64,000 nucleotides of DNA from Escherichia phage UGJNEcP3, in sequence record OV876907; one strand, 5' to 3'. Shown here one piece after another: positions 13,425 to 61,262 of the stretch. Both the position numbers and the translations under genes were made by a program. Under the pieces are notes generated by a model. It was not told where the DNA came from, did no database searches, and saw only the letters and a program-made list of their open reading frames with translations. Every line of letters begins with the position of its first letter. Positions within the stretch are counted from its first letter, which is position 1.

Positions 13425-13465
13425 AATATTCTCTTCAATTCAGTACGTCATTATCTGATAGGGCT

Positions 13466-13638: not shown

Positions 13639-13727
13639 AGCCTTTTCCCTTATGTTTCTGCTTACGCTTGGACTCTTTAAAATTTTTCTTCTTGTCCTTA
13701 TGAACAGAAGCCTTATTGAAATCGTGC

Positions 13728-14823: not shown

Positions 14824-14837
14824 AATAATTTCCTCAG

Positions 14838-15473: not shown

Positions 15474-15504
15474 TTTGTATCTCCGATAACCATTTATTTG
15501 ATAG

Positions 15505-15540
15505 GTCTATAGTATCATGTTTAAAGCAGATGTAAACACT
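15505..15540 (-). promoter_or_regulatory. early promoter for motA
   Basis: GTTTAC(15532-15537), 17 bp, caTGaTACTAT, then AGACCTATCAA box. Confidence 0.6.
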
Positions 15541-15554
15541 TTTTCACTAAACCC

Positions 15555-15576
15555 AAAAAAGGAACCCGAAGGTTCC
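15555..15576 (-). terminator. intrinsic terminator hairpin (UUCG loop + T-run)
   Basis: GGAACC-UUCG-GGUUCC then TTTTTT on minus strand, right after the micro-ORF stop. Confidence 0.6.
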
Positions 15577-15681
15577 TTACTTTTTAAAGTGAGCTGCTAT
15601 TAAACCTATAGCTAGGCCTGTGGCCAGGCCTAGGATAATAGCAAAGATACAGAGTAACAAGAACTCGACTCCAAGGCTCAT
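15577..15681 (-). CDS. 34-aa hydrophobic micro-protein coupled to gene 52
   Basis: ATG overlaps gene 52 stop (ATGA); MSLGVEFLLLCIFAIILGLATGLAIGLIAAHFKK is one TM helix. Confidence 0.45.
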   Translation of the reverse strand: MSLGVEFLLLCIFAIILGLATGLAIGLIAAHFKK

Positions 15682-17057: not shown

Positions 17058-17061
17058 AATT

Positions 17062-17202
17062 TTACCATACTAGTGAATGAATAGCCATAATAACATCGGA
17101 AATAAAAAGCACAACTTGGATAAGTCCGAACATTACTCCATAATACAGTGCTACTAATAAAGCAGCAAGGGCTACTGAGTAGCCCAAGATTTTCTTAATC
17201 AT
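17062..17202 (-). CDS. 46-aa membrane micro-protein (52.1 position)
   Basis: ATG 17200-17202 overlapping ac-like stop; hydrophobic. Confidence 0.45.
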   Translation of the reverse strand: MIKKILGYSVALAALLVALYYGVMFGLIQVVLFISDVIMAIHSLVW

Positions 17203-17356
17203 TTTTAATCATCTTAAGTAAACCGACAGAAGTAGAAAGAACCCAGCCAATAAACAGAAAACTTAAGAATACCGGACCAGGGGCCCACACACCTAAAAAG
17301 AAGCAAACTGAACAGACTATAGCCATAATAAGTTCAATAAAAACTAGGATAACCAT
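17195..17356 (-). CDS. ac: Ac-like 53-aa membrane protein
   Basis: ATG 17354-17356 with GAGGA SD; two hydrophobic segments; position between stp and 52 as T4 ac. Confidence 0.5.
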   Translation of the reverse strand: MVILVFIELIMAIVCSVCFFLGVWAPGPVFLSFLFIGWVLSTSVGLLKMIKND

Positions 17357-17366
17357 ATTTTCCTCA

Positions 17367-17444
17367 TTAGCGTCCGAAGACGCCTTTAGTTTTAAGATTG
17401 TTACGATAGAACTGCATCACATGCTCGTTATGGAAATTACTCAT
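17367..17444 (-). CDS. stp: Stp peptide (25 aa)
   Basis: ATG overlaps ndd stop (TAATG); [25 protein letters not shown] matches T4 Stp as recalled. Confidence 0.75.
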
Positions 17445-17893
17445 TAGTATGCCTGCAGAATGAATTTAAAGTTATCAGCCAACATGCGGTTCATTTCTTC
17501 CAGTGTCTGGAGGTCGGAACTATGATTGCGGGTGAAAGCCATTGCAATTTGACCCTTACCAAAACCGGTGGTCAGAGGTTTCATCTTAGAAGCTGGTACA
17601 TAAAGAACTTCATACACAACACCGTTCACTGCCATGGTGCGAGCTGATTGAGAACGTTTCTTACGAATGTTAGCCACGATGCCATCAAGACCTTGGGCCG
17701 AACGTTGATTACCGACATAAAAACGAGCAGCTACGACACGAGAATCAGCTCCACCTTTAACAAAGAAGTAGAAGCCTGGCTGAGCAGAGATTTCTTTAGA
17801 AGGTTTACCATTTTGGTATTCACCGTTCTTAACATAAGCAACAGTAGTAGCACCAGCAGACAGAACGTTACGGCGAGTCATATAAGTATTCAT
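17444..17893 (-). CDS. ndd: nucleoid disruption protein Ndd
   Basis: 149 aa; ...[10 protein letters not shown]...[25 protein letters not shown]...[20 protein letters not shown] matches T4 Ndd (memory). Confidence 0.9.
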
Positions 17894-17942
17894 ATCAATT
17901 TCCTCAGTAGATTAATGTTTTGTTATCCGGTCAACGAGAACC

Positions 17943-17971
17943 ATTATAACATGATTCTCGAGGTTGTAAAC
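17943..17971 (-). promoter_or_regulatory. early promoter for ndd
   Basis: GTTTAC(17966-17971), 17 bp, caTGtTATAAT; inverted repeat CGAGAA/TTCTCG flanks -10. Confidence 0.55.
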
Positions 17972-18315
17972 TATTTTTGTAGCTGTTCTAAAATAAATCC
18001 GCTCGTATAAAAAGAAGCATTATAAACCTTGTTCAGCGGGTTCAAAGCCTGTCCGTAAGTATCACGTAGTTCTTTGATAACATTTTCATAGCTTACATAA
18101 TAACCACTATGATAATACGGGTCCATACTCATACGAAATTTAATAAACCGATAAAATCCTGTTTCTGGGTCTTGAACGAAAACGAAATCGGCACCCATCA
18201 TAATTTTTGAATCTACGCCAGGAATCATACTTTGATTGAATGCCACCGATGCATCCTGAAGGCTGAGTTGTTTAAAGAACATTACCTTAGCATTACCAAA
18301 AAAGATTTTAGACAT
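17971..18315 (-). CDS. hypothetical protein (114 aa from internal ATG)
   Basis: ATG 18313-18315 with AAGGAAA SD after upstream stop; track ORF extends to 18339. Confidence 0.6.
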   Translation of the reverse strand: MSKIFFGNAKVMFFKQLSLQDASVAFNQSMIPGVDSKIMMGADFVFVQDPETGFYRFIKFRMSMDPYYHSGYYVSYENVIKELRDTYGQALNPLNKVYNASFYTSGFILEQLQK

Positions 18316-18325
18316 GATAATTTCC

Positions 18326-18538
18326 TTATTCAGCGTCAACAGAAATAGCCATCAGTTCATCAACAGTAAGACACTGTACACTAGGTCCTACACAAAAGCG
18401 CTTAGTTGAATCATAAAGGTCCGTGGCATTAACAGGTTGTAATTCGGTCCCAACTTGCAAAGGAGAAATGCGAATCAGTTGTTGACCGTTATGTAATACA
18501 AAGCTCTCGCCGACTACCACATCTTTAAAAAGTTTCAT
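18326..18538 (-). CDS. hypothetical protein (70 aa)
   Basis: start moved to MKLFKD ATG with GAGG SD overlapping the micro-ORF stop. Confidence 0.55.
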   Translation of the reverse strand: MKLFKDVVVGESFVLHNGQQLIRISPLQVGTELQPVNATDLYDSTKRFCVGPSVQCLTVDELMAISVDAE

Positions 18539-18548
18539 AATATTTTCC

Positions 18549-18659
18549 TCAGAAGTTAAAGAATACACGTACATGGTCAATCATAAAAACGATTGGGAAA
18601 ATGCTCAATACCATTAACAACACAAACATGTTCCAAATTGCTTTAAGTAAGTTTTTCAT
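18549..18659 (-). CDS. 36-aa hydrophobic micro-protein
   Basis: ATG 18657-18659 with GGAG SD just after an early promoter; MKNLLKAIWNMFVLLMVLSIFPIVFMIDHVRVFFNF. Confidence 0.45.
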   Translation of the reverse strand: MKNLLKAIWNMFVLLMVLSIFPIVFMIDHVRVFFNF

Positions 18660-18679
18660 AATCATCTCCATTAGTTGAT

Positions 18680-18716
18680 AGGTCTATAGTATCATGATTA
18701 ATGGAGATGTATACCG
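18680..18716 (-). promoter_or_regulatory. early promoter (GTATAC -35 variant)
   Basis: GTATAC, 17 bp, caTGaTACTAT, AGACCTATCAACTAA box. Confidence 0.55.
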
Positions 18717-18804
18717 ATTTATGCCAATTTCCACAACAATAAACTAAAACATACGCAAATCACTGGGATACAGGCCATCCAAATAAGGCACCACGTTTTG
18801 CTAC

Positions 18805-19071
18805 TCAAAACACCACCTCTTTTATCTCAATCAATCCCCTGTACAATGCAGTGCGGAGGTCATAAAGAATATCTATGCCGTCAACATTATCCAGTTTTCC
18901 ATCAATAAGCTTTTCTAAATCTTCCTTTGATGCGATTAAAGGACGGAGAAATTTACATTCAGAAAGAGATAACTCTGTAGTAACATCATCACCTTCACCT
19001 GACGCGTCATACATAGCGGCAACAACCATGCCTGTAACTTTGTGTTTAGCGTAATATAATTTGATATCCAT
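18805..19071 (-). CDS. hypothetical protein (88 aa)
   Basis: start at MDIKLYY ATG with GAGGAG SD; track N-extension is translated promoter. Confidence 0.6.
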   Translation of the reverse strand: MDIKLYYAKHKVTGMVVAAMYDASGEGDDVTTELSLSECKFLRPLIASKEDLEKLIDGKLDNVDGIDILYDLRTALYRGLIEIKEVVF

Positions 19072-19127
19072 TTTGTTCTCCTCATTAGTTGATAGGAAGA
19101 TAGTAACACCATCCATGGCATTATAAC

Positions 19128-19355
19128 TTAAGCAATGGAATGTTTTGGATGCTGTTTAGCCCAACCTACTAAAAATTCCCAATACTTTTCGATAGAACCG
19201 TAAAGATTAATTACCGTAGGAGTGGTAACTTCAGTCCAATCTTTTTGAACATTACCTGTTTTAATATTGGTAAGCTTGTGAAACACTTTACCGTTCTCAA
19301 ATTTATATTCTTCGATTTTACGATTGATTGCTTTAACAGAAGTAATAGAAGTCAT
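19128..19355 (-). CDS. hypothetical protein (75 aa)
   Basis: start at MTSITSV ATG with GAGAGGAAA SD; track N-extension is translated promoter. Confidence 0.6.
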   Translation of the reverse strand: MTSITSVKAINRKIEEYKFENGKVFHKLTNIKTGNVQKDWTEVTTPTVINLYGSIEKYWEFLVGWAKQHPKHSIA

Positions 19356-19369
19356 AATATTTTCCTCTC

Positions 19370-19408
19370 GTGTAGTTGATAGGAAGATAGTAACACCATC
19401 CATGGCGT
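19370..19408 (-). promoter_or_regulatory. early promoter
   Basis: GTTTAC(19400-19405), 18 bp, gTGtTACTAT, CTTCCTATCAACTAC box. Confidence 0.55.
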
Positions 19409-19431
19409 ATGTAAACACTTATTTTAAAAAA

Positions 19432-20013
19432 TTATAAGGCGAGATACCAGCCGTTGTAATTGCTCTTACGGACTAGCTTTGTGATGGCTTCTCTGTCGCC
19501 AGAGAACTTAGGAGTGAACAGGACGTCGCCTGCCTCATTTACTGAAGTGTCGAATATAATTATACAGTCTGCAACTTTATGATTCAAGAGCGGTCCCAGG
19601 TTAATCCCTGTTCCATAAGGGAAGTCACCGGAGTATCCTGTAGTACAGGAAATCCACTTAGAATCTGATTGATGGGTCTTGACCTCTACACGTAGTCCAC
19701 AATACATAGGATGAGCTAAAACATCCCATGCATAGGTATAAGGGTCGTCATGGTCTTCCAGACCACTGTTAACATATCCTTTCAACCAATCAGCCACCAT
19801 ATACTCGGCATACGTTGCAATGACACACCGAGTCAATACTTCTTTCTTATCTTGGGACGGGTCTTGGCTTAAGGAATACAGTACGGTATCCTTAATCTTA
19901 ACCTTCATTTCGCCTGTTAAATCAGATGTCTTCAGGGTAAATGTCGGCATCGCTGCCAATCGGAGTAGTCCCGGGTTCGTCTTCACCATAAATGCCTCGA
20001 ATATGAAGTTCAC
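19432..20013 (-). CDS. hypothetical protein at the denB position (start uncertain)
   Basis: 193-aa ORF; upstream part overlaps next ORF so true start is probably an internal ATG (19950 or 19908); DenB identity unverified. Confidence 0.45.
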   Translation of the reverse strand: MNFIFEAFMVKTNPGLLRLAAMPTFTLKTSDLTGEMKVKIKDTVLYSLSQDPSQDKKEVLTRCVIATYAEYMVADWLKGYVNSGLEDHDDPYTYAWDVLAHPMYCGLRVEVKTHQSDSKWISCTTGYSGDFPYGTGINLGPLLNHKVADCIIIFDTSVNEAGDVLFTPKFSGDREAITKLVRKSNYNGWYLAL

Positions 20014-36144: not shown

Positions 36145-36666
36145 TTAATAACCACGGTCCTGACGAGCAAAGTTCTCGGCATTTTTCAGATAATACAGTT
36201 TAAAGATTTCTTCTGCAGTAAGTCCAAGACCCTGGAACATATTCAGAACAAAGTGCAGAATATCAATCATTTCGAATTTAATTTCGAGTTGGTCTTCAGG
36301 AGACAACTCGTCGATACGACGATTACGGAATTCAGCATGCTGAGCTTTCCAAGGCTTCCACACACTAGAGGCTGCTTTTTCACCGTTGGACATACCGCCA
36401 AGAGAAGTCAGCAGTTCACGGAATTCATCGTCAATATAATCTTTCTGGTTGCGAAGCCAATCGACGACTTGACCTGCGGTAGCCAGTTCATCAGGATTAG
36501 AGTTGAATTCTGATTTTTCGGTAGCCAGGCGAACCTGTAAAGATTTCTGCATATCAAGCATAACTTGCAGAGGGTCTTTATCTTCATGAATCAGAGCATT
36601 AAAATAAGCTTCCTCAGCTTTATCAACACCAGAAATCAAACCACTACATTCGTTAAAAAATGCCAT
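36145..36666 (-). CDS. 56: dCTPase/dUTPase (MazG-like) gp56
   Basis: 173 aa; size, position (between soc and 61) and helical NTP-pyrophosphatase character. Confidence 0.8.
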   Translation of the reverse strand: MAFFNECSGLISGVDKAEEAYFNALIHEDKDPLQVMLDMQKSLQVRLATEKSEFNSNPDELATAGQVVDWLRNQKDYIDDEFRELLTSLGGMSNGEKAASSVWKPWKAQHAEFRNRRIDELSPEDQLEIKFEMIDILHFVLNMFQGLGLTAEEIFKLYYLKNAENFARQDRGY

Positions 36667-36670
36667 TATA

Positions 36671-37327
36671 TTATTTCCTATTAAAGTTTTCTATCATTCG
36701 TCGATAACAAATATCAGGATATCCATTATCAACAGCTATTTTATTAAATTTGGTGCGTTTAGGTTTATTATTGTAAACCCATAATTCATAAAGCATATCG
36801 TAACTATTCCATATTTCTCCACGCCTAGGATTTGGCAAACCATATCGAGGGGAATCTTTACCACTAAATCTTCCTTTTCTAGCTTTACTCATATTGGCCT
36901 TGGCTTCATCAGATATAATTTTATCTTTATGAGCCAGGCGCATTTTGGCTTTAGTTTCTTCAGGAGTTTTCATCCCTCTAATCCAGGAAGGTTTACCAAA
37001 CATCGGGTTATTTTTTCCCGAAAATGCTTTAGCGTTATTTTCTCTTAACGTGGCTATAGTTCTACTAGTTAATTTAACTCCTTTATTATATCTCATTAAA
37101 TTAACAGCATAATGTAGACCTTTTACTTCGGGATATATTTTTGTTAAAAGCCTATGAGCTACAAAGTGTTCTCTTGGCAATAAAGCAACTAAATTGTTTT
37201 TATCATCAGAACCATTCATACATCTAGGTATAACATGGTGTTCTTCCGTATAATACGATAAAGACCGCTTAGAACCTCTTAATTTTCCTTTAGATATTAA
37301 TTCCTGGTATATTTTTTCGTAATTCAT
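36671..37327 (-). CDS. HNH homing endonuclease with NUMOD3-like repeats
   Basis: 218 aa; HNH core EEHHVIPRCMNGSDDKNNLVALLPREHFVAH; repeated GKNNPMFGK / GKDSPRYG modules; between 56 and 61. Confidence 0.8.
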   Translation of the reverse strand: MNYEKIYQELISKGKLRGSKRSLSYYTEEHHVIPRCMNGSDDKNNLVALLPREHFVAHRLLTKIYPEVKGLHYAVNLMRYNKGVKLTSRTIATLRENNAKAFSGKNNPMFGKPSWIRGMKTPEETKAKMRLAHKDKIISDEAKANMSKARKGRFSGKDSPRYGLPNPRRGEIWNSYDMLYELWVYNNKPKRTKFNKIAVDNGYPDICYRRMIENFNRK

Positions 37328-42848: not shown

Positions 42849-43162
42849 CTCTTAGATTTAATTTTATCCAGTTCTTCTTGTATTTGCATTGTAACACATT
42901 TTTCTACATGAAGCGCTAGCTCTTCTTTTCGGTCTTCGGAAGGTGTTCCGAAATCAACCGACACTTTTCCATCTTTCTCAATAACAATATTCATCACATA
43001 AACGATGTGAGCAGTGCCATCGGGTAAAGTAAGCATAATTTCCTGCTTAACAGAACCCATTGACTTACGGATTATATCTAATGATTTCTCATAATAACGA
43101 GGGTCACTAGGACCCTCTTCGGTATCTTTAACAAAATTATCTAAATCAGATAAATCAGTCAT
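42833..43162 (-). CDS. 40: gp40-position protein (head vertex assembly chaperone in T4)
   Basis: 109 aa between 41 and uvsX as T4 gene 40; not sequence-verified. Confidence 0.55.
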   Translation of the reverse strand: MTDLSDLDNFVKDTEEGPSDPRYYEKSLDIIRKSMGSVKQEIMLTLPDGTAHIVYVMNIVIEKDGKVSVDFGTPSEDRKEELALHVEKCVTMQIQEELDKIKSKRWWKW

Positions 43163-44327
43163 CTAAATCCATCTCTTCTAAATCGTTTTCGATATCAGCA
43201 GCGCTTTGGGTATTTCCACCTAATTTAACAGCAACGTTCTTAGAGACGCGAGAGTTAATAAGGTCGTTAACCGCATCGTCAACTTCTTTAATAGAATTAA
43301 TTGCACCGAGCTTATACTTATTCTCGATTGCTTCACGGAACGGAGCATGTTTAAACAGCGGTCCCCAGAACTCAACGCAATCGGTAGCTTTAGCACGCCA
43401 TGCTTTTTCTTCTTGAACCATTTCACCTGTGGTTTCGTCAAGGAATGCACGATTATACCAGCCAGCTTTAGGTTTCACGACAAAGCCGATATCAGTAGCC
43501 ATTTCAAGCAATCCACTGAATGGGTCGATACCACCTTCGAAGTTAACGGTGATAGGGAACGTTGATTTCTCTTTAACCGTACGAGATTTCTCGGCCTTCA
43601 GTGTGAAGTCATAACCTGTGAGCTCGGTACCATCTTTAACCTGACGTTTAGAGATAAAGAATACGGTAGAAGCAGAGTACAGAATACCAGTACCACCACC
43701 CATAATCTCTTTAGGATACATTCCACCAATTTCCATAGCCGTGTGGTTAATTGCTACACAAGGAATATCCTTGATGGTCAGATAAGGCGTTACGATACGG
43801 AACAGAGATTTCAGTGACTTAGCACGAGTCATATCACCTACAACTTTCTCGTTCAAAGCATCTTCGGTTTCTTTCTTAGAAGCAGTGTTACCAATAGAGT
43901 CGATAAAGATAATAACCTTTTCGCCACGAGTAATTTCTTCTAACTGGTTGGTCATATCAACTTTAAGCTGTTCGACTGACTGGATTGGGGTATGAACCAC
44001 ACGTTCCAAATCAACACCCATCGAACGGAAATAAGATTCTGAAGCACCAAACTCAGAGTCATAGAACAAACAAATTGCGTCTGGATATTTCTTCATATAT
44101 GCCGCAACCATGGTAAGTCCAAACAACGTTTTAAAGTGCTTAGATGGAGCAGCAAAGATTGTCAAACCTGATTGTAAGCCTGCATTCAACGCACCACCCA
44201 ATGCAATATTCAGCATAGGGATACGAGTAGGAACTTCGTCACGACCATTAAACAATTTAGATTTGGTCAGGTCGGCAGTCATTTTAGAAGTAGAAGCTTT
44301 AATCAAACGGGATTTTAAATCAGACAT
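43155..44327 (-). CDS. uvsX: UvsX recombinase (RecA/Rad51 family)
   Basis: 390 aa; near-collinear with T4 UvsX as recalled (MSDLKSRLIKASTSK..., YDSEFG, EKSRTVKEKS, WGPLFKH). Confidence 0.92.
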   Translation of the reverse strand: MSDLKSRLIKASTSKMTADLTKSKLFNGRDEVPTRIPMLNIALGGALNAGLQSGLTIFAAPSKHFKTLFGLTMVAAYMKKYPDAICLFYDSEFGASESYFRSMGVDLERVVHTPIQSVEQLKVDMTNQLEEITRGEKVIIFIDSIGNTASKKETEDALNEKVVGDMTRAKSLKSLFRIVTPYLTIKDIPCVAINHTAMEIGGMYPKEIMGGGTGILYSASTVFFISKRQVKDGTELTGYDFTLKAEKSRTVKEKSTFPITVNFEGGIDPFSGLLEMATDIGFVVKPKAGWYNRAFLDETTGEMVQEEKAWRAKATDCVEFWGPLFKHAPFREAIENKYKLGAINSIKEVDDAVNDLINSRVSKNVAVKLGGNTQSAADIENDLEEMDLDD

Positions 44328-44404: not shown

Positions 44405-45298
44405 TTAAAGGACCACGTCCTCATAACTTGGCATTTCGTGCTCAGAATGGATATGGGCACCGAAATAAATGAATTCAGCTAGACCAGGATGGAATACTAA
44501 ACCAGGATTCTCGTGATAAATGATATGAGGTCTTGATTTCAGAATCTGATAATATTCAACCTTACTAGGTTTGAATTTAATAATCTCTACATCAGGACGA
44601 TAGTCTTCACGTTTAAATGAATCATTCGGGTCGGTGATATAAAGGCGAGAACCTTCAGCTGCAGCTTGGTCTACAACTCTTTCGAATTGATAACATTTAT
44701 CAGAGATACGGAATGGATGGAAAATACCATCAATTTTAATAGGCGCTAGACCTTCAGAGTAACGCTCAATTACTGCGGGATTAATTACCTTTTGGTCTAC
44801 AAAAATCTTATCAGAGGACGCACCTCGTGACACCAGGACGTCTTTCTGGCATTGATTCAGGACTGTAGTATAAATCGAACGTTCAACTGAGGACACGTCG
44901 GTATCAATAAACTCGTCGATATAATAACGAGGAACTTCAGGGTCCATTGTAATGTTAAAGTTGAATTGTACAGTCTGAGTGCCATCATAACCTGTGATAT
45001 CGGTTACTAATCCTGAGCAGTCATAGTATTCGATTAACGAATCAACAACGAACTCGTTTTCAGACCAAAAATGTTTACGAGTTTCATAAGCATTTTCTTT
45101 ATACCAAAGCGGTACAAAATTCAGTTCAGGAAATAATTCAATGCATTCTTTGATATCGCTCGAATTTCTAGGATAAGCCAGATAATCACCTGGGCAAGCA
45201 CGGTTTAAATGGAGTTGAAAATTACCGTCCTTAAGGACGGCATATTCACCTGTTTCGTAACTACGCATACTGAAAATAGGAACGATAAACAGACTCAT
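44405..45298 (-). CDS. hypothetical 297-aa protein in the beta-glucosyltransferase locus (candidate DNA sugar transferase)
   Basis: occupies T4 beta-gt position between uvsX and 42-like gene; sequence does not resemble T4 beta-gt; no motif recognised. Confidence 0.6.
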   Translation of the reverse strand: MSLFIVPIFSMRSYETGEYAVLKDGNFQLHLNRACPGDYLAYPRNSSDIKECIELFPELNFVPLWYKENAYETRKHFWSENEFVVDSLIEYYDCSGLVTDITGYDGTQTVQFNFNITMDPEVPRYYIDEFIDTDVSSVERSIYTTVLNQCQKDVLVSRGASSDKIFVDQKVINPAVIERYSEGLAPIKIDGIFHPFRISDKCYQFERVVDQAAAEGSRLYITDPNDSFKREDYRPDVEIIKFKPSKVEYYQILKSRPHIIYHENPGLVFHPGLAEFIYFGAHIHSEHEMPSYEDVVL

Positions 45299-45993
45299 TT
45301 CAGGAATCCTCGAACATAGTCAAAATCACGTTCAAATACATGTGCACTAACCATAGTATGGGAATACGTACCCAGACCAACACCACACTGTTCAGCAATA
45401 AAGGCCATCAGTTTACCCTGCAGATAGAAATCCAGCTGCATAACGATAGCACAGTTCTGTGAACGCATATGAGTGTGTGCATACAGACGTCCATCACGAA
45501 TATAATATGTCACCGAATCGGTACAAGGATATTCTAAGGATTCGTCAGAATCAAGGAGGGCTTGGTCTTGTTCTTGGAGAATCTGGAACACAACTCTTCT
45601 TGAGTTAGGCTTCTCTTTAAGCTCTTTAAGTAAGGCTGGGAGTTGGGCCACAATTCGAGGTCCATAGAAAGTGTTGAAGTTTGCAGGCAATACGTCACTT
45701 TTCGGCTTATCAATGAACTTAGCAACATTAGGGTATTCCTTAAATGCTTCGGCGGCGTCAGTACCACCGGAAATCATAAACTTCCAGAAAGATTCGGCAT
45801 AATCATAGTTGATACGATTAATACGAGGGTCGGTGAATTTATAGGTGCTTGCATCCAGAACTTCAACTGAAGCCGAACCAATTTCATAACAACGACCGAT
45901 ACGAGAATCAACTGCAAACTGTGGAGCTTCCAGGATTTCTTCGTTCATTTGTTTAAATGCATTTTCAAAACTAACAGCGGTAATGTGTTTCAT
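45295..45993 (-). CDS. 42: thymidylate-synthase-family pyrimidine hydroxymethylase (gene 42-like)
   Basis: 232 aa; SRR arginine motif, catalytic-Cys block YPCTDSVTYYIRD, MRSQN...LD with Asp at the gp42 cytosine-specificity position, C-terminal SAHVF. Confidence 0.65.
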   Translation of the reverse strand: MKHITAVSFENAFKQMNEEILEAPQFAVDSRIGRCYEIGSASVEVLDASTYKFTDPRINRINYDYAESFWKFMISGGTDAAEAFKEYPNVAKFIDKPKSDVLPANFNTFYGPRIVAQLPALLKELKEKPNSRRVVFQILQEQDQALLDSDESLEYPCTDSVTYYIRDGRLYAHTHMRSQNCAIVMQLDFYLQGKLMAFIAEQCGVGLGTYSHTMVSAHVFERDFDYVRGFLK

Positions 45994-46526
45994 TTATTCA
46001 CCTCATAATTAATGTATTCATTAAGACGTTTTAATTCTACCATATCGACGTTAAGCAAGTTATTATGGCCGTCGTGATTTAAGATTTTAAACACGTTTTC
46101 AAAACATGTTTCATATTGGCGGATAGTTAGGTTGAACTCATCTTTAGTCAGTTTAATGAGGTCATCTTCAAAGTCTTTATCCAACGGATTACGGGTTAAA
46201 ATAACCTCAATGATATTGAATTCTTTTTTGAAATCAATCCAATCTGCTAGTTCTACATAAGGGTCCATTTCACCACGAAGGAATCCCGAGTAAACAATAT
46301 TACTAGGATAACCACGGTCTAGGATGTAAACGAAATTAGGGTCTAAAAACTTATACAACGTCTCGACTAAAGCCTTGTCATTATCAGTTCCTAACGAAAT
46401 ACATTTACCATTAATCTTTTTAGGAAAATCAATAAGACGATATTTCTTATCAGATAAAAGGGTTTCGATTAAAGTAGACTTCCCGGAATTATCCGGGCCG
46501 TCTATAACAATGATTTTTGGATTCAT
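45990..46526 (-). CDS. P-loop nucleotide/nucleoside kinase
   Basis: 178 aa; Walker A IVIDGPDNSGKSTL at N-terminus (dNK/TMK-like); unlike T4 gp1. Confidence 0.65.
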   Translation of the reverse strand: MNPKIIVIDGPDNSGKSTLIETLLSDKKYRLIDFPKKINGKCISLGTDNDKALVETLYKFLDPNFVYILDRGYPSNIVYSGFLRGEMDPYVELADWIDFKKEFNIIEVILTRNPLDKDFEDDLIKLTKDEFNLTIRQYETCFENVFKILNHDGHNNLLNVDMVELKRLNEYINYEVNK

Positions 46527-46897
46527 GGATGATAGGCCTTATAACTATCAAGAGTTCCTTCGCGAACCATTTCTTTAAAGTGGTCAGGACGAATTGCTCG
46601 GTCATCGATGATAAAAGTATAACTCGGCTTGTGTGTAAGCAAATTGTGATATTTCAATCCAATTTTTTCAAGGTTCTTAACCAATGCAGGAACTACTTCA
46701 ACCAAGATTCGGCCTGGGCCGCATGAAGTCATACCACGGGCAGTGAACAATGTAATCTCATGACCTTCATCGTACAGCTTATTAATCATGGACACCATTT
46801 CGGTGTCCGGTTTAAAGTTTTCATAATCACGGTCATCTTGCCAGTGAGTAATGGTATTATCGATGTCAAAGCACAAATGCATTAAATTTTCTTCCAT
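46523..46897 (-). CDS. HAD-superfamily phosphatase
   Basis: 124 aa; motif I FDIDNTIT (DxDxT), motif II TARG. Confidence 0.65.
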   Translation of the reverse strand: MEENLMHLCFDIDNTITHWQDDRDYENFKPDTEMVSMINKLYDEGHEITLFTARGMTSCGPGRILVEVVPALVKNLEKIGLKYHNLLTHKPSYTFIIDDRAIRPDHFKEMVREGTLDSYKAYHP

Positions 46898-48555
46898 TGT
46901 TTGTGGAGTTCAGTAGAACCTGTAGGTTTATATTTTACACCAGTTTCCTGGTCAAGCAAAACCCACTTATCAGGGCATCGAGTGATAATTTGGGCCGTAA
47001 TAGGGTCACGAACTTCATCGACAAATTCACCTGTAATAAGCTTACGCTTACGAGGATGCCGCTTCAGCAGCACACTCAGTTGATATAGACCGTTGTAATA
47101 AGCGCCCAGAGCTTTCAGAGGGTTATTTTTAAAGTAACCTGCCAACGCCATCCAGATAACAGCAATCCAGAGCTTGTGCTTAAATGTACACATTGGAATA
47201 TCATCTAAAGGCATAACCTTTTCAATATCAACGAATACTCGAGTTCCATTACGAGTTAAGCCACCCCATAGAGGGTCAGAGTTAAATTTGTCATAACCAT
47301 CGATAGAATAAAGCACCTTAGCTTCATCATAAATCGCAGGGCCTTTAGAACTATTACCAAAATAACCGCGTGGGTCGATGATTTTAATATCACCTTCGTC
47401 CGACAGCATAATATTACTGTAGTGCGGGTCGCCGTGAATAAGTTGGTACGGTTCTTTATGTTCAGACAGAATTTCTAGTGCATGACGAAGAAGTTTTTCT
47501 GGGTCGCCTACCTTAAAGTCATTGACATGGGTAATGCCCTGTGGAGCAAAGCCTTCAATCAATCCAGCAATAGAAGCATTACGAATAAGGACCTTGTCCA
47601 ATACTTCTTTCTTAACATCGGAATACCATTGCTCATCGGATGGATTATCGATAGTTCCACCAAATGAACGTAATGCACTAATGACCTTATAAACCATGAG
47701 GACTTTAGTTTCTTTAGACATAAACCGATAGGCATCTGCCATGGTGCGACCAAAGATACGTTCCATTTTAATGAATTCACCTGGAGCAAAGTCTACAATG
47801 CTCGGAACAAATTCAGAATCAATAGAATTATACCAATTGATTTCTTTAGATTGGATTTCTTTACCTAATTCGTTGGTAGGTACTTTAATAGCCAGATTCT
47901 CAGTGAACTCTAATTTATTAAATTCACGGTTAATTTCAGAATCTTCATGGGCCTTAGCCAGTTTCAATTTGTCACCGACATCAACTACAAAGTCCAGCTT
48001 ACGTTCGGTCAAATGGACCATCGAATCTAGGTTATCAGCAAGGTCTTCGCCATAATTAGAACGGTTGAAGCCTGTCCAATTAGCCACCTGATACAAACCA
48101 ACCACACCACCGCCAGTACCAATTTCACGCAAGTACGGTTCTTCAAATGTAAAACGACAGTCAGTCCCGTAGGTATAGCAATAGTCGTTATCCCACTCAA
48201 CTTTATGACCCTCAGGAATGATGTCACACCAGTTAAACAAGACGTTATGGCCAATGATATCTTCAGCAATGCAATCGATAGCATGAGCTGAACCATTAGC
48301 CACATCTACGTTACGAATAGTGAATTTAGGCTTATCACTATTAATCATGTTAATGGATTTAATATAGCCTTTAACGAGGTCGTTAAATTTGCTGTGAATA
48401 ACCAGAATAATTTCATCTGATTGGTTACTATACAAATCATACAAATGTTTTAATACAGTATGTTGTTTGTAGTTAACCAATACCTTCGGGATTTCGTTAG
48501 TAATTGGATACAACCGTGAGCCAAGACCCGCGCCTAAAATAACAACCTTTTTCAT
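46882..48555 (-). CDS. bifunctional sugar-1-phosphate nucleotidyltransferase / APH-fold kinase
   Basis: 557 aa from ATG 48553-48555 (GAGGAA SD); N-terminal ILGAGLGSRLYPIT..PKVLV (RmlA/GlmU-type); C-terminal LIHGDPHYSNIML + IIDPRGYFG (APH/ChoK-type). Confidence 0.75.
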   Translation of the reverse strand: MKKVVILGAGLGSRLYPITNEIPKVLVNYKQHTVLKHLYDLYSNQSDEIILVIHSKFNDLVKGYIKSINMINSDKPKFTIRNVDVANGSAHAIDCIAEDIIGHNVLFNWCDIIPEGHKVEWDNDYCYTYGTDCRFTFEEPYLREIGTGGGVVGLYQVANWTGFNRSNYGEDLADNLDSMVHLTERKLDFVVDVGDKLKLAKAHEDSEINREFNKLEFTENLAIKVPTNELGKEIQSKEINWYNSIDSEFVPSIVDFAPGEFIKMERIFGRTMADAYRFMSKETKVLMVYKVISALRSFGGTIDNPSDEQWYSDVKKEVLDKVLIRNASIAGLIEGFAPQGITHVNDFKVGDPEKLLRHALEILSEHKEPYQLIHGDPHYSNIMLSDEGDIKIIDPRGYFGNSSKGPAIYDEAKVLYSIDGYDKFNSDPLWGGLTRNGTRVFVDIEKVMPLDDIPMCTFKHKLWIAVIWMALAGYFKNNPLKALGAYYNGLYQLSVLLKRHPRKRKLITGEFVDEVRDPITAQIITRCPDKWVLLDQETGVKYKPTGSTELHKQWKKI

Positions 48556-48615: not shown

Positions 48616-49116
48616 TTAAATCTTATCTTTACCGATTTCAATACACTGTTCTATTGCCGCCGGTACTTTGGTCTTGAGCTTATCGATTTGTTTCTTATAA
48701 TCACGAGCTTTACCGAAGCTCTCGGTTTCGAGCATTTCGTAATAACGAGCCTCGTGGATGGAAATCTGTAGATTGATATGGTTTACGCACATCGCATACA
48801 GTTTCTGCTTTTTGTACAAATCATCTTGGCGCTTCATTTCTGCCTGGTGTTTGGCTAGTACCGCTTCACGCTTAGACTCTTGTTCACGTTGGAATTCGAT
48901 TTCCCTTTGAGCATATTTTGCACAGTTATTACCACATTGATTATTAGCTCGGGTATACACAAGTCCAGAACCGGCACGGAATTTCATTTCGCCATCGAAT
49001 TGTTTCTGTTCAGCTGCGATACGAGCTTTACCAACTTCATCGGCTGAAACTGCATCACCATATTGGACCGCACAACCTGATAGGAGCATACTCATTGCGA
49101 TAATTAACTTTTTCAT
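48616..49116 (-). CDS. lipoprotein with coiled-coil-like body (166 aa)
   Basis: MKKLIIAMSMLLSGCAV signal + lipobox; charged helical remainder; GAGGA SD. Confidence 0.6.
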   Translation of the reverse strand: MKKLIIAMSMLLSGCAVQYGDAVSADEVGKARIAAEQKQFDGEMKFRAGSGLVYTRANNQCGNNCAKYAQREIEFQREQESKREAVLAKHQAEMKRQDDLYKKQKLYAMCVNHINLQISIHEARYYEMLETESFGKARDYKKQIDKLKTKVPAAIEQCIEIGKDKI

Positions 49117-55714: not shown

Positions 55715-55906
55715 TTAATCAAAGTACTCGTAGACAAACCATGCCGGATTTCTATTTGACATGATTTTATCATATTCTGACTTAAAAGCATTTCGGAGAT
55801 ATTCTTCAGTAACAAGATGCTCATCTCCAGAGAAGTTGTTAACTAAAACGTATCTCTTTATTTCTGGAAAGGCCAACAAATGCTGGCCTGTTATAAAATC
55901 ACTCAT
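55715..55906 (-). CDS. hypothetical protein (63 aa)
   Basis: early-strand ORF abutting the GIY-YIG gene. Confidence 0.5.
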   Translation of the reverse strand: MSDFITGQHLLAFPEIKRYVLVNNFSGDEHLVTEEYLRNAFKSEYDKIMSNRNPAWFVYEYFD

Positions 55907-56589
55907 TATGAAGCATCCTTTAATTTACAATTATCAAAGTGCCATCGTTTCATAATGTTGTTAGAGCCAATTTTATCACAATATGGGCACTTTACAGTTG
56001 GTCTGCTTTTAGCTTTTGCAGATTGTTTGCTTTTCATAGCCTGTTTTGCTTCGTCAGACCTAGAATTAAGGGCTATAGAAATTTTATCCCTTGTTTCTTG
56101 GCTATGAGTTTTTCCGAACATAGGGTTGTTCTCAGGCAAATATGTACCATTTCTTATATTACTCTGACGAATTTTTTCTATATGTTCTTTAGATTTATTT
56201 CTTAGCTCTAGGCATTTAGATTTCTTTCTAGTTTTAAAAAGGTTTTCATAAAATGAATACGGTCTATTTTTAGCAGCTATACTCTGTTTAAGTCTGGTTT
56301 CCTCTTTTATAAAAGGTGCGGCATTACCTCCTAAAGAAATATTATATGTAAGAGGGTTCTTTATAAATTCCTCATTGACTATAATTCTTTCCATTTGGAT
56401 AGCCTCTTCTCTGGTATCAAAATTATAAAGTATTTCCTTTCTATGATTTTCCAAACCATATTTTTTAATAGAAGCTTTAATATATAAACCAGAGCCCATA
56501 TACGAATCTTTAATATTTTCAGTACTATGTATCCCTACATAGTACTTATTATTAACTAAATTTATTATTTTGTAAACAAGATGTCTCAT
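55906..56589 (-). CDS. GIY-YIG homing endonuclease (Seg-like) with NUMOD3-like module
   Basis: 227 aa; VYKIINLVNNKYYVGIHS...YMGSG (GIY...YIG core); ENNPMFGKTHSQETRDKIS; C-terminal CPYC; between 45/rpbA and 46. Confidence 0.8.
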   Translation of the reverse strand: MRHLVYKIINLVNNKYYVGIHSTENIKDSYMGSGLYIKASIKKYGLENHRKEILYNFDTREEAIQMERIIVNEEFIKNPLTYNISLGGNAAPFIKEETRLKQSIAAKNRPYSFYENLFKTRKKSKCLELRNKSKEHIEKIRQSNIRNGTYLPENNPMFGKTHSQETRDKISIALNSRSDEAKQAMKSKQSAKAKSRPTVKCPYCDKIGSNNIMKRWHFDNCKLKDAS

Positions 56590-58271: not shown

Positions 58272-58521
58272 CGTTATAAGCATCCTTGATGCATGATTCA
58301 GCCATATGAATTAATGTTTCTGGAGTATCATCTACCATTACATTAAAGCTAAATTCTACAGCCCAATCGGTAGCAACATAAACTTTAATAAGCTCGCCGG
58401 TATCACGAGTGCTCACGGCTTCAAACCAGAACTTAATTGTACTAGGTTGACCATCATCATCAATAACTATACAGTCGTGTTCCAGTTCAAGTCCCGATTT
58501 TTTGAATTCATCTAAAGTCAT
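58258..58521 (-). CDS. hypothetical protein (46.1 position)
   Basis: 87 aa between 47 and 46. Confidence 0.55.
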   Translation of the reverse strand: MTLDEFKKSGLELEHDCIVIDDDGQPSTIKFWFEAVSTRDTGELIKVYVATDWAVEFSFNVMVDDTPETLIHMAESCIKDAYNDEDF

Positions 58522-59540
58522 CGTGTAACCTCATTATAAAGTTGTGCAGCCATAGTCTTAAGGGCTTTAACATCGGCTTCAGTGTGGCCATCAGGAAGGG
58601 CATCGATATAATCATACATCATATCCAAGAGGGATTTAACTTCGTCTTCCTCTTCAGAATCATCAATATCAACACTATTATCTACCTTAGACACAATACG
58701 TAAAGAGTGAACAACCTTTTCAAGCTCTGATTCGAACTTAGTAAGACCGTCATCGATTTTATCGACTATAACACGAACTGCGATATTTGTAAAATCTTTG
58801 TAATCGATAGTCTCGTTAGGATAATGAATCTTACGATGCCAACAGGTTTCATTAATGATGAAATCCATTTTATGAGTTTCGGTATCGAAAATCCAGAAAC
58901 CACGAGGGTCGTTCTCATCGCCTGCAGTAAGGGTCCATGGCGTACCAATGTACTTGACGTTTGCTGCATCAGAAATGGTGTGGAAGTGGCCAGACCATAC
59001 TTGCTTATACTTCTTAAGGAAATCAGGTTCTAAACCATGTGATTTCATTCCTTTATAGAAATAGAAACCATTTAATTCCCAGTGGCCAATACAGAAATCT
59101 GCCGTGGTATTTTTGATATGGTCCATGATATCAGTGGTGTTTTCTTCACACATCCATGGAATCAAATCAATTTCGGTGCCATCAAAGTTAACCGTAGTAG
59201 GTTTCTCAATAACCTTGATATGGTCATATTTACCCAGAACTTCAGAAGCTGCGTTCGGCGTCAGGGTATTTTTGTAGTGGGCATCATGGTTACCAACGAC
59301 CGTATACATGGTAATGCCACTTTCTTTAAGCAAATCAGAGATTTCGCGAGCGAATTCCATACACTTATGGGTAATTGCTTTACGAACGTCAAAGATATCA
59401 CCGTATTGAATCCACACGGTAATACCATTTGCTTTAGAATAATTGATAGCGTCTTGGATACCTTGACGTTGGATATTTTGTACCCACACATCATCGGCCT
59501 TCACTCCAAGGTGCCAGTCACCTGTGTTTAATATTTTCAT
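58518..59540 (-). CDS. 47: recombination nuclease subunit gp47 (Mre11/SbcD-like)
   Basis: 340 aa from MKILNTGDWH ATG; phosphoesterase motifs GDWHLG, GDIFD, GNHD, GHWE, GHFH. Confidence 0.9.
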   Translation of the reverse strand: MKILNTGDWHLGVKADDVWVQNIQRQGIQDAINYSKANGITVWIQYGDIFDVRKAITHKCMEFAREISDLLKESGITMYTVVGNHDAHYKNTLTPNAASEVLGKYDHIKVIEKPTTVNFDGTEIDLIPWMCEENTTDIMDHIKNTTADFCIGHWELNGFYFYKGMKSHGLEPDFLKKYKQVWSGHFHTISDAANVKYIGTPWTLTAGDENDPRGFWIFDTETHKMDFIINETCWHRKIHYPNETIDYKDFTNIAVRVIVDKIDDGLTKFESELEKVVHSLRIVSKVDNSVDIDDSEEEDEVKSLLDMMYDYIDALPDGHTEADVKALKTMAAQLYNEVTR

Positions 59541-59680
59541 AAGCCGAGCACCGTTATCGCAATGCAAAATAAAATTATTGAGATGAACCCATCAGGAGTA
59601 GAAAAGAATCCTATCCAACAGGCTCGTGTGAATGTGTAGAATGCCATGAATAACACGACATATCCTAAAAGTAATTCCAT
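59537..59680 (-). CDS. 47-aa membrane micro-protein coupled to gene 47
   Basis: GAGGAG SD; MELLLGYVVLFMAFYTFTRACWIGFFSTPDGFISIILFCIAITVLGL; stop overlaps gene 47 ATG (ATGA). Confidence 0.45.
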   Translation of the reverse strand: MELLLGYVVLFMAFYTFTRACWIGFFSTPDGFISIILFCIAITVLGL

Positions 59681-59722
59681 ATGTTCTCCTCAGTTGGTTC
59701 ATTTTATCATCCGAATATAAAG

Positions 59723-59745
59723 CAAAAAAGGAGCCTAAGCTCCTT
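59723..59745 (-). terminator. hairpin + T-run terminator
   Basis: minus-sense AGGAGC-UUAG-GCUCCU followed by TTTTTT. Confidence 0.5.
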
Positions 59746-59996
59746 TACCAATTAATACGCCATACAGAGGTTCATGAGAAGACCTGAACTTGATAGGCTT
59801 ATAGGTAATAGTACCTTCATTTTCCGCTTTAATACGAGCAGCTTCAAATTTAAGTATCATCTCATTTTTGTCAGATTTAATCTTATCAAAATCCATCGAA
59901 TTCGTCATTCATAAAACCTCTTAAACTTTTTCGTATTCGTCATTCATAGCTTAAAAATCTGGATGTTCGTCTTTCATTAGCCACCTGTCCATGTTA

Positions 59997-60197
59997 TCAT
60001 CGTTGCCACCACTTCTTAAGTTGATGTGAATCCACCCAAACCTTGGCTACAGGCTCAATCCGAAAAATTTCATCGGAATACTGCCCAACCATTTTATATT
60101 CGGTTTCAGTCTGCTTAATACAAATATTACCGTATGAGCGAAGTCTGAAGGCGGCTCCAATAAGAAGCCGTTTAAAGGGTTTATTTACTAGCGCCAT
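59997..60197 (-). CDS. hypothetical protein (66 aa from internal ATG)
   Basis: start placed after upstream ORF stop; basic. Confidence 0.45.
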   Translation of the reverse strand: MALVNKPFKRLLIGAAFRLRSYGNICIKQTETEYKMVGQYSDEIFRIEPVAKVWVDSHQLKKWWQR

Positions 60198-60492
60198 TGA
60201 TAATTTCCCAAATCTGTTTACGCGTAGTTTCCCACATAACTCTAACGATTTCGTCAGTAGTTGGTTGACGGTAAATACCACGTAATTTAATTATAGCATA
60301 TTTGTAAGCTTCGAAATTGTTTTCGAGAACAGCGCCCTGAGCATGTGTATTAAGACGCTTAATTTCACGGGCATTCTTTTTAAGAATTTTGGCAGCTTGG
60401 GAAGCGGCTTCTTTAGCATTATTCTCTTCTAAACGCTTCTGGGCTTCTTCAATTTGCTCTTCGGTCAATTGAGAAATGTCGGTGCTTTGCAT
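60181..60492 (-). CDS. hypothetical protein (103 aa)
   Basis: early-strand ORF in the 47-55 interval where T4 carries alpha-gt. Confidence 0.55.
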   Translation of the reverse strand: MQSTDISQLTEEQIEEAQKRLEENNAKEAASQAAKILKKNAREIKRLNTHAQGAVLENNFEAYKYAIIKLRGIYRQPTTDEIVRVMWETTRKQIWEIINGASK

Positions 60493-60493
60493 A

Positions 60494-60742
60494 TTAATCC
60501 TTGTAATTCAGTTTTATATAAAAATCTTCGTCGGTAACGTGATAGTTATAAGTTAATGTTCCTTTTTCAGCTTTAATTTCTACCGAATCAGGGTGTTTTG
60601 GGTCTATTACAATAGGAAGCTTGGCAATATCCTTAAGATACATTTTAAGAACATAAGGAATTGCCGAATACTCTCCATCTACTTCTTCTAAAAGGCCTAC
60701 CAGGTTAATCTTGAGTTCCATATAAAAAATCCAGCTCACCAA
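60494..60742 (-). CDS. hypothetical protein (82 aa)
   Basis: ORF directly downstream of gene 55. Confidence 0.55.
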
Positions 60743-61262
60743 CTTTAGATTCGGCGCTCTTATCAGACCCTGGCGCTTTAACTAAAGAGGTTTCATACTG
60801 AGTCATTTTGTCGTAAATATCCTGGATAAAAGTTTCATCTGCGATACCTACCATGTCGTCGTCATTGGCGTCATAAACGTTATGGACGAAGTAGCTGTAT
60901 TTCTTTGCCATTTCTTTACGTTCTTTCTTGATACGCTGAACAAAGGCATTAAAACAAGCCATAGTGATATATGCATGTGGGTTGTCGTATTTTGTTTCGT
61001 CGAAGTTATGAAGACCTTTAATAGAGGCTTCGATTCCATCAGCAATCATTTCTTGCTTCCAAGATTGGGTATATCCGGAGAAGTTGAAACGCTTAGAAAG
61101 GCCTTCAGCAATGAGCATAATAGCCAAGCCGATAACGTCGTTCTGACGAACTATTTTATTAGGGTCGGTATTTTCTCGGAGTTCTGTTTTCCACTGGGTA
61201 ATGGCTTTCAGAAGCTCCTTATTATTTACATAGTTATTTTTAGTCAGTTTAATTTCGGTCAT
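60705..61262 (-). CDS. 55: late-promoter sigma factor gp55
   Basis: 185 aa; [15 protein letters not shown]....[65 protein letters not shown] matches T4 gp55 (memory). Confidence 0.92.

Follow-up and report, generated by a model that had tools for sequence, protein, structure and literature searches.

Genes 47 and 55 of this phage lie on the minus strand of the window (the whole 64,000-nucleotide stretch that was analysed). Between the start of gene 47 at 59540 and the stop of gene 55 at 60705 we find five minus-strand genes, coding for 47, 57, 66, 103 and 75 aa, and one short gap. The features are as follows:

58518..59540, minus strand: gene 47 (SbcD/Mre11-like recombination nuclease subunit), the lower flank; same annotation in JS98 and UGJNEcP4
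59537..59680, minus strand: 47.1, 47 aa (T4 gp47.1, 80% identity, E 4e-21; phrog_6693, E 1e-30)
59681..59734, no strand: empty slot, a 54-bp gap between a-gt.2 and 47.1, as judged from the gene orders of T4, Mineola, RB69 and JS98
59701..59724, minus strand: MotA-type middle-promoter pattern (TGCTTTA, 11 nt, TAAAAT) upstream of 47.1 and 47
59727..59746, minus strand: hairpin AAAGGAGC-TTAG-GCTCCTTT followed by a T-run, from a terminator scan
59735..59908, minus strand: a-gt.2 ortholog, 57 aa, DUF5486 (T4 a-gt.2, E 2e-18; RB69 a-gt.2, 58% identity; PF17588, E 2e-20)
59997..60197, minus strand: a-gt.3 ortholog, 66 aa (T4 a-gt.3, E 1e-14; phrog_1648, E 6e-29)
60181..60492, minus strand: a-gt.4 ortholog, 103 aa, DUF2654 (T4 a-gt.4, E 6e-22; PF10849, E 1e-24)
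60494..60721, minus strand: a-gt.5 ortholog, 75 aa, DUF5491 (T4 a-gt.5, E 5e-18; PF17595, E 1e-18)
60705..61262, minus strand: gene 55 (late sigma factor), the upper flank (T4 gp55, 78% identity, E 2e-96)

Residues 1-339 of T4 gp47 align with the window from 59540 down to 58521 (tblastn, 71% identity, E 6e-163), and T4 gp55 aligns from 61262 down to 60708, with the stop codon of gene 55 ending at 60705. A sequence-only reading of this DNA had stated that the interval 59540-60705 lacks the alpha-glucosyltransferase gene (a-gt) that T4 has here, and that it holds only ORFs of about 100 aa or less. Its coordinates are exact and both statements hold. Since no reading frame of the interval, on either strand, stays open for more than 108 codons, a gene of 400 aa cannot fit.

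The same reading had described the 47-aa product as a membrane micro-protein, and we come to the same view: residues 3-17 and 31-47 each form a hydrophobic segment (mean Kyte-Doolittle hydropathy 2.1 and 2.8-2.9), and T4 gp47.1 is annotated as a predicted membrane protein. The stop codon of 47.1 overlaps the start of gene 47 (ATGA); the gene is annotated in JS98 and has no annotation in the UGJNEcP4 record. At the other end of the interval, the a-gt.5 ortholog shares its first 17 nt with the 3' end of gene 55. Two of the products become longer if an upstream start is taken, namely that of the a-gt.3 ortholog (94 aa, from a GTG) and that of the a-gt.5 ortholog (82 aa, from a TTG).

All five small ORFs are full-length matches to T4 47.1 and a-gt.2-a-gt.5 (tblastn, E 1e-14 to 6e-22). 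Three of the five match Pfam DUF families of their own, there are PHROG matches as well, and the order of the ORFs between 47 and 55 is common to T4, RB69, JS98 and Mineola. Furthermore, all five genes are under purifying selection (dN/dS 0-0.22): we obtained values of 0.04-0.16 for 47.1 (against VR5 and MN01), 0.10-0.22 for a-gt.2, 0-0.14 for a-gt.3, 0.06-0.09 for a-gt.4 and 0.06 for a-gt.5 (against VR5). We found no mention of a-gt.2 to a-gt.5 or of DUF2654 in the literature that we searched. Annotators should note that the names a-gt.2 to a-gt.5 and 47.1 imply nothing about glucosylation.

Escherichia phage UGJNEcP4, a Dhakavirus from the JS98 group, matches the window at 100% identity, which made it possible to assemble the complete genome (170,590 bp) and to search it. 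In this genome, tblastn gave no significant match to T4 a-gt, T4 beta-glucosyltransferase (b-gt), the T2-type ba-gt or RB69 gp3; the best alignment of T4 a-gt, in the window as in the complete genome, reached E 0.02-0.06 over 36 residues. When the same four proteins were compared by phmmer with the 456 six-frame ORFs of at least 80 aa from the whole genome, nothing was found at E <= 10. A very permissive tblastn of the interval alone did not pick up any remnant of a-gt, b-gt, ba-gt, mobB or RB69 gp3 (lowest E 0.056, in a 1.2-kb database), and PF11440 (AGT) had no match among the interval ORFs. In the positive controls the Pfam models recognised the T4 and RB27 enzymes, T4 a-gt scoring 862 bits with PF11440. 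Neither a homolog of the T4 alpha-glucosyltransferase (PF11440) nor a gene in its position between a-gt.2 and 47/47.1 is present, and by tblastn and phmmer the genome has no homolog of T4 b-gt (PF09198) or of the T2/T6 beta-alpha-glucosyltransferase TAGT (PF20691). Every T-even glucosyltransferase is absent from the whole genome. This extends the earlier statement that neither T4 enzyme is found at its syntenic position in the window.

Could an alpha- or beta-glucosyltransferase simply have been overlooked, whether encoded at another place in the genome or divided over several ORFs of the interval? Phage glycosyltransferases can diverge beyond the reach of BLAST, and RB69 gp3 also lacks a Pfam match. 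However, the whole-genome tblastn and phmmer searches rule out a transferase at another place, and a split or decayed one in the interval is ruled out by the permissive tblastn together with the finding that each ORF is orthologous to a small ORF of T4, where these ORFs coexist with a-gt. The large hypothetical ORFs just outside the window, as far as they were examined, are homologs of T4 nrdC.4,.5,.6,.10 and.11, and a family HMM of the arabinosyltransferase described below (AraGT1) matches a single ORF of the genome. We consider it barely credible that such an enzyme has escaped us.

The 54-bp gap is the position of a-gt in Tequatrovirus and Jiaodavirus (and in T4 of mobB, too). In T4 the order is 47, 47.1, a-gt, mobB, a-gt.2, and while the flanking genes and all five small ORFs are orthologous to those found here, T4 has about 2.1 kb more between 47.1 and a-gt.2, consisting of a-gt (400 aa, PF11440), the HNH homing endonuclease gene mobB and a second regulatory module. 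Klebsiella phage Mineola (Jiaodavirus) has 55, a-gt.5 to a-gt.2 and 47 in the same order as here, with an a-gt in the slot (66% identical to T4 a-gt) and two regulatory modules, and is without mobB and 47.1. RB69 (Mosigvirus), on the other hand, has a-gt.2 directly after 47, without a-gt and, as here, with one module between the two; 47.1 is not annotated in RB69, whereas it is present in this phage. For JS98 (and JS10; NC_010105) we see no difference of substance: the DNA identity over the 47-55 interval is 99.5%, and the order 47, 47.1, a-gt.2, a-gt.3, a-gt.4, a-gt.5, 55, without a-gt, is the same. The empty interval is thus already known, as it has been annotated since JS98. Even among close relatives of T4 the combination of a-gt and b-gt is rare, with 6 of 753 phages that carry a T-even-type transferase (PMC13216743).

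The gap carries regulatory motifs only, one hairpin and then a match to a MotA-type middle promoter. The stop codon of a-gt.2 sits in the loop of the hairpin, which may act as a terminator-like or RNA-stabilising element; RB69, T4 and Mineola have equivalent hairpins in this position, with TTCG loops. For the promoter we looked for a TAnnnT -10 element that precedes a gene on its coding strand and has a MotA box (TGCTTtA) some 12 bp ahead of it. A match to this sequence pattern of the T4 MotA-dependent middle promoter occurs at 59724-59701 on the minus strand. There are 13 such patterns in the window, as compared to 2.3 in shuffled sequences, and the coding (minus) strand carries 10 of the 13; we regard the one in the gap as a putative promoter. 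A scan of the region for sigma-70 promoters yielded 4 sites, with 6.7 expected. The same MotA-type module is found in RB69, T4 and Mineola. The hairpin and MotA box together form a single copy here and in RB69; in T4 and Mineola they are duplicated around the cassette. We read the 47-55 interval of this Dhakavirus as a variable cassette slot in its unoccupied state, in which a-gt would be gained or lost by recombination between the repeated regulatory modules.

How the slot came to be empty is a matter of history only, and the present identity of the 47-55 locus is not affected by the choice between deletion and insertion. An ancestor bearing a-gt may have switched to 5-hydroxycytosine and then lost a-gt by recombination between two hairpin/promoter modules; alternatively, the glucosylating lineages acquired a-gt by a later insertion. 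We put the chance of a secondary deletion somewhat below even. In T4 and Mineola two similar modules flank the cassette; if they recombined, precisely the one module that RB69 and this phage have would remain. The slot is also dynamic: T4 has mobB in it, and two other phages, whose flanks are nearly identical, have a homing endonuclease there. However, the interval contains no sequence remnant of a-gt, and flanking repeats would permit an insertion equally well.

The genes that this phage carries instead of the T-even glucosyltransferases are related to those of RB69:

36145..36666, minus strand: gene 56 dCTPase (94% identical to RB69 gp56; Pfam dUTPase_2)
44405..45298, minus strand: 297-aa GT-B glycosyltransferase at the b-gt locus, ortholog of RB69 gp46:47 (arabinosyltransferase 1; 64-69% identical)
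45295..45993, minus strand: gene-42 homolog, predicted 5-hydroxy-dCMP synthase (79% identical to RB69 gp48, compared to 25% to T4 gp42)
45990..46526, minus strand: P-loop nucleotide kinase, RB69 gp45-like (37% identity, E 1.5e-30; phrog_761, thymidylate kinase)
46523..46897, minus strand: HAD-type phosphatase, like RB69 gp51 (61% identity) and HY126 AfhF (PDB 9iqw, E 4e-53)
46882..48555, minus strand: bifunctional sugar-1-phosphate nucleotidyltransferase and kinase, like RB69 gp52:53 and AfhE (41-44% identical to RB69 gp52 and gp53)

The protein at the b-gt locus had been described as something other than b-gt. This is correct, and the protein can now be named more exactly: it is a GT-B glycosyltransferase, and its ortholog in RB69 is arabinosyltransferase 1. 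It has no Pfam match, and a profile search of its family against the PDB sequences gave no match either, so that the relationship to GT-B enzymes is seen by fold comparison only. Its gene is syntenic with that of the synthase. For RB69 gp46:47 itself, the activity of a first-step arabinosyltransferase has been proposed, not demonstrated (PMC13326640).

A protein of the thymidylate synthase family, the gene-42 homolog has, like RB69 gp48, the motif RSQN, in which Asn takes the place of E. coli ThyA Asp169; at this motif T4 gp42 has RSND and the Td protein of this phage has RSVD. RB69 gp48 was shown experimentally to make 5-hydroxy-dCMP (5hodCMP), and the Asn is the described signature of 5hodCMP synthases (PMC13326640). 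Among PDB sequences, the homolog matches 9iqu/9iqc with E 1.5e-125 and the T4 entry 1b49 with E 5e-6. From these similarities we predict that it is a 5-hydroxy-dCMP synthase and not a dCMP hydroxymethylase. A different reading is that hydroxymethylcytosine is made here just as in T4 and either stays without a sugar or receives some other one, a-gt and b-gt having simply been lost. Like T4 gp42, the gene-42 homolog is a member of the thymidylate synthase superfamily (Pfam PF00303), and in older annotations such genes are called dCMP hydroxymethylase. However, the far closer relationship is to the verified RB69 synthase, hydroxymethylases and thymidylate synthases have Asp where the homolog has Asn, and its gene is adjoined by those for a full set of UDP-arabinose enzymes and for the GT-B transferase. 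This makes T4-like hydroxymethylcytosine very unlikely.

Enzymes for the supply of UDP-arabinose are present in the form of the AfhE-like kinase/nucleotidyltransferase (a 557/567-aa ORF with Pfam NTP_transferase and APH) and the AfhF-like HAD phosphatase. On the other hand, the complete genome has no homolog of RB69 gp55 (arabinose-5-phosphate isomerase), gp3 (second arabinosyltransferase) or gp50 (U32-like), and RB69 gp49 is also absent here. That is, we found neither a phage arabinose-5-phosphate isomerase nor the further arabinosyltransferases for di- and tri-arabinosylation. The presence of gp55, gp3 and gp50 homologs varies between carriers of the arabinosyl-5-hydroxycytosine pathway, the type known from RB69, DLP3 and HY126; phage Thanatos, with a single transferase, is mono-arabinosylated (PMC13326640). 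There are also differences in arrangement, as the nucleotide kinase gene lies between uvsX and the transferase in RB69 and downstream of the synthase here. Unlike RB69, this phage has a gene for a 166-aa lipoprotein in the cluster region (48616-49116). Its product was considered as a substitute for the missing isomerase and ruled out, since it has a lipoprotein signal peptide and an invariant lipobox cysteine.

The absence of a-gt between 47 and 55 is explained by this RB69-type gene set, which is directed at 5-hydroxycytosine and arabinose and not at glucose. As the phage is predicted to make no hydroxymethylcytosine at all, a-gt would not be needed. The dCTPase of gene 56 would supply dCMP, which the gene-42 homolog, as a flavin-dependent 5-hydroxy-dCMP synthase, would hydroxylate; the hydroxylated nucleotide would then be phosphorylated and incorporated in replication, and the single GT-B arabinosyltransferase from the b-gt locus would add arabinose. 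The donor, UDP-arabinofuranose, would come from the adjoining kinase/nucleotidyltransferase and HAD phosphatase. We consider it very probable that this reading, an empty 47-55 slot and an RB69-type pathway, is correct.

Judging from its genes, the DNA base of this phage is predicted to be 5-hydroxycytosine and not hydroxymethylcytosine, and therefore the divergence from T4 would begin one step ahead of the sugar transfer. The sequence-only reading had argued that the T4 glucosylation scheme is not used, which is supported by the absent transferases and by the RB69-type gene set. This argument needs a correction, as glycosylation of the DNA is still predicted, only that both the base and the sugar would differ from those of T4. 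The literature that we searched gives no measured nucleoside composition for any Dhakavirus. We see about an even chance for a more specific proposal, namely that the minimal kit of Dhakavirus (one transferase, without phage arabinose-5-phosphate isomerase or U32-like protein) gives mono-arabinosyl-5-hydroxycytosine only, with arabinose 5-phosphate provided by host KdsD/GutQ, and that the a-gt slot is a recombination hotspot bounded by hairpin/middle-promoter modules, whose occupancy (a-gt, a-gt and mobB, a homing endonuclease, or empty) tracks the base chemistry of the lineage.

The assignment of the cluster is also already known, since Dhakaviruses are named among the carriers of the syntenic cluster (Lee et al. 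2026), and there is no new biology in it. For the annotation of JS98-like phages it means that genes labelled "thymidylate synthase" or "dCMP hydroxymethylase" most likely code for a 5-hydroxy-dCMP synthase. Phages of this group are predicted to be resistant to enzymes and glycosylases that target glucosyl-hmC (Brig1, PMC13216743) and to be still a substrate of broad type IV enzymes such as BrxU; both predictions bear on phage therapy and on work with defence systems. BrxU cleaved the arabinosylated DNA of a Mosigvirus (PMC13390438).

A megablast search with window 59400-60800 matched 100 phage records, of which the top match was Escherichia phage UGJNEcP4 (OV877765.1, genus Dhakavirus; 100% identity); JS98 and JS10 came next (about 99%). 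The UGJNEcP4 record is 100% identical to the window without gaps (window 19363-64000 corresponds to record positions 1-44638, window 1-19489 to 151102-170590), and therefore the complete 170,590-bp genome of the phage was open to a glucosyltransferase search. Note that window 19363-19489 (127 bp) aligns to both the first and the last 127 bases of this record; the deposited linear record therefore has a short terminal duplication, and its junction is spanned by the window.

The sequence-only reading had placed an interval without alpha-glucosyltransferase (a-gt), holding only ORFs of about 100 aa or less, at window 59540-60705. Its coordinates are exact: T4 gp47 aligns to 59540-58521 (71% identity, E 6e-163) and T4 gp55 to 61262-60708 (78%, E 2e-96), so that the interval runs from the gene 47 start codon to the gene 55 stop codon. 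We found five ORFs, each of which is, as judged by alignment, a full-length ortholog of a T4 ORF:

59537-59680, minus strand: 47.1 ortholog, 47 aa (T4 47.1, 80% identity, E 4e-21)
59735-59908, minus strand: a-gt.2 ortholog, 57 aa (T4 a-gt.2, E 2e-18)
59997-60197, minus strand: a-gt.3 ortholog, 66 aa (T4 a-gt.3, E 1e-14)
60181-60492, minus strand: a-gt.4 ortholog, 103 aa (T4 a-gt.4, E 6e-22)
60494-60721, minus strand: a-gt.5 ortholog, 75 aa (T4 a-gt.5, E 5e-18)

Each of the five has a match to a PHROG family of unknown function, and three match Pfam families of their own (DUF5486, DUF2654, DUF5491); we found no literature on their function. Their dN/dS values against VR5 (Dhakavirus) and MN01 (Gaprivervirus) are 0.04-0.22, and by this measure they are real genes under purifying selection, 47.1 included. 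The 47-aa product, previously read as a membrane micro-protein, does have two hydrophobic segments. Although its gene is intact, with 98% conservation and purifying selection acting on it, UGJNEcP4 and VR5 leave it unannotated, and several Dhakavirus records thus have an annotation gap here.

The gene order is 47, 47.1, a-gt, mobB, a-gt.2-5, 55 in T4 (Tequatrovirus) and 47, a-gt, a-gt.2-5, 55 in Mineola (Jiaodavirus). In RB69 (Mosigvirus) it is 47, a-gt.2-5, 55, and in JS98 and the window (Dhakavirus) 47, 47.1, a-gt.2-5, 55. The place of a-gt in the window is a 54-bp gap. Here we see a hairpin, AAAGGAGC-TTAG-GCTCCTTT (59746-59727), whose loop contains the a-gt.2 stop codon, followed by TTTGCTTTA, 11 nt and TAAAAT, an arrangement that matches the T4 middle-promoter pattern of MotA box and -10 element. 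The window has 13 occurrences of this pattern, mostly on the coding strand, against 2.3 in shuffled sequence. RB69, too, has one such module of hairpin and MotA box, whereas T4 and Mineola have two, flanking the a-gt cassette on both sides. The cassette could have been either gained or lost by recombination between such modules.

In the Dhakavirus Esco_phi_B-01 and the unclassified phage Ec2-ASingh, where the genes flanking this slot are nearly identical to those of the window, a homing endonuclease of 204-205 aa replaces 47.1:

L008 428-1045 and L009 428-1042 (comparison loci from related phages, each in its own coordinates; equivalent to window ~59540-59735), minus strand: slot homing endonuclease (phrog_10820, E 2e-92; weak GIY-YIG match)

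Within this phage group the a-gt slot is therefore a hotspot for insertions. Two further homing endonucleases lie elsewhere: a segA-like ORF that lies immediately upstream of gene 46 and has a NUMOD3 motif (55906-56589, minus strand; 40% identical to T4 SegA), and an HNH/NUMOD3 ORF next to gene 56 (36671-37327, minus strand; 42% identical to the N-terminal half of T4 MobB). A mobB relative is thus present in the genome, though not in the a-gt slot.

No frame of the interval stays free of stops for more than 108 codons, which leaves no room for a 400-aa gene, and a very permissive tblastn against the interval alone gave no trace of a-gt, beta-glucosyltransferase (b-gt), beta-alpha-glucosyltransferase (ba-gt), mobB or RB69 gp3, the second arabinosyltransferase. 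A glucosyltransferase split among the small ORFs is ruled out, since their orthologs coexist with a-gt in T4. Neither in the window nor in the complete genome did T4 a-gt, T4 b-gt, T2-type ba-gt (RB27 sequence) or RB69 gp3 give a significant tblastn match, and phmmer found no glucosyltransferase at E <= 10 among all 456 six-frame ORFs of at least 80 aa; the T4 and RB27 enzymes, used as positive controls, are picked up by the corresponding Pfam models. Just outside the window, the large hypothetical ORFs proved homologous to T4 nrdC.4,.5,.6,.10 and.11. Homologs of T4 a-gt (657 records in the phage collection) apparently belong to Tequatrovirus, Jiaodavirus-like phages and a few cyanophages, with no Dhakavirus among the matches listed (40 of 657 records). 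Having both a-gt and b-gt, as T4 does, is rare (6 of 753 phages; PMC13216743).

The conclusion that this phage does not use the T4 glucosylation scheme is thus supported, with a correction: the DNA is predicted to be glycosylated still, the base being 5-hydroxycytosine and the sugar arabinose, both unlike T4. The cytosine-arabinosylation cluster of RB69, which comparative genomics extends to Dhakaviruses (Lee et al.), has an orthologous counterpart here between uvsX (43155-44327) and gene 43. In this counterpart the gene-42 homolog (45295-45993) is 79% identical to RB69 gp48, experimentally shown to convert dCMP to 5-hydroxy-dCMP (PMC13326640), and only 25% to T4 gp42. At the residue equivalent to E. 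coli ThyA Asp169, such synthases carry Asn (PMC13326640); here the homolog reads RSQN like RB69 gp48, T4 gp42 RSND and the phage's own Td RSVD. In the PDB it matches 9iqu/9iqc (E 1.5e-125) and T4 dCMP hydroxymethylase 1b49 (E 5e-6).

The protein at the b-gt locus, rightly taken not to be b-gt, is an ortholog of RB69 gp46 and gp47, themselves a single gene split by a sequencing error:

44405-45298: 297-aa ORF, 64-69% identical to RB69 gp46 and gp47

Neither Pfam nor the PDB sequences yield a match for it; in an AlphaFold2 model (60 homologs, pLDDT 95.4) it has a GT-B fold. Homologs are present in 350 phage records (Mosigvirus, Marfavirus, Acinetobacter and Serratia phages), which overlap with the groups that the literature calls arabinosylating, and the protein would be the transferase that glycosylates the DNA.

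Further genes follow downstream of the synthase: those for a P-loop nucleotide kinase, a HAD phosphatase (RB69 gp51, 61% identity; PDB 9iqw, E 4e-53) and a nucleotidyltransferase-kinase fusion (RB69 gp52:53, 41-44% identity). The gene 56 dCTPase and its RB69 counterpart share 94% identity. Unlike in RB69, gp3, gp49, gp50 (U32-like) and gp55 (arabinose-5-phosphate isomerase) are absent from the complete genome. Since Thanatos, with a single transferase, is mono-arabinosylated (PMC13326640), we predict by analogy that this phage is mono-arabinosylated and uses host arabinose 5-phosphate as precursor.

Between imm and the arabinose-activation genes we see a 166-aa ORF (48616-49116, minus strand) that starts with a lipoprotein signal peptide, MKKLIIAMSMLLSGC, and has no counterpart in RB69 or T4. 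Its Cys15 is conserved without exception in 12 homologs. The ORF is present in 113 phage records, some of which have it adjoining an arabinose-5-phosphate isomerase gene, and its product may serve in superinfection exclusion or as an envelope protein instead of being a pathway enzyme.

All this has been described before: the JS98 record has had the same interval annotation since deposition, the lack of a-gt and b-gt in RB69 was published in 2018 (PMC6024577), and the arabinosylation cluster of Dhakaviruses was noted in 2026 (Lee et al.).

While a-gt.3 and a-gt.2 overlap in T4, in the window they are separated by an 88-nt spacer (59909-59996, minus strand) with a 13-nt direct repeat, ATGAATGACGAAT, at 59947-59935 and 59912-59900, and a mini-ORF, MKDEHPDF* (59977-59951), resembling the T4 a-gt.2 N-terminus (VKDEHPTSE). 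A local duplication seems to have shortened a-gt.2 at its N-terminus. Compared with Gaprivervirus MN01, the a-gt.3 protein is 100% identical, a-gt.4 78% and a-gt.5 only 36% (window 60494-60721 versus 1299-1532 of the comparison locus L014), which points to mosaicism within the interval, with recombination breakpoints between the small genes.
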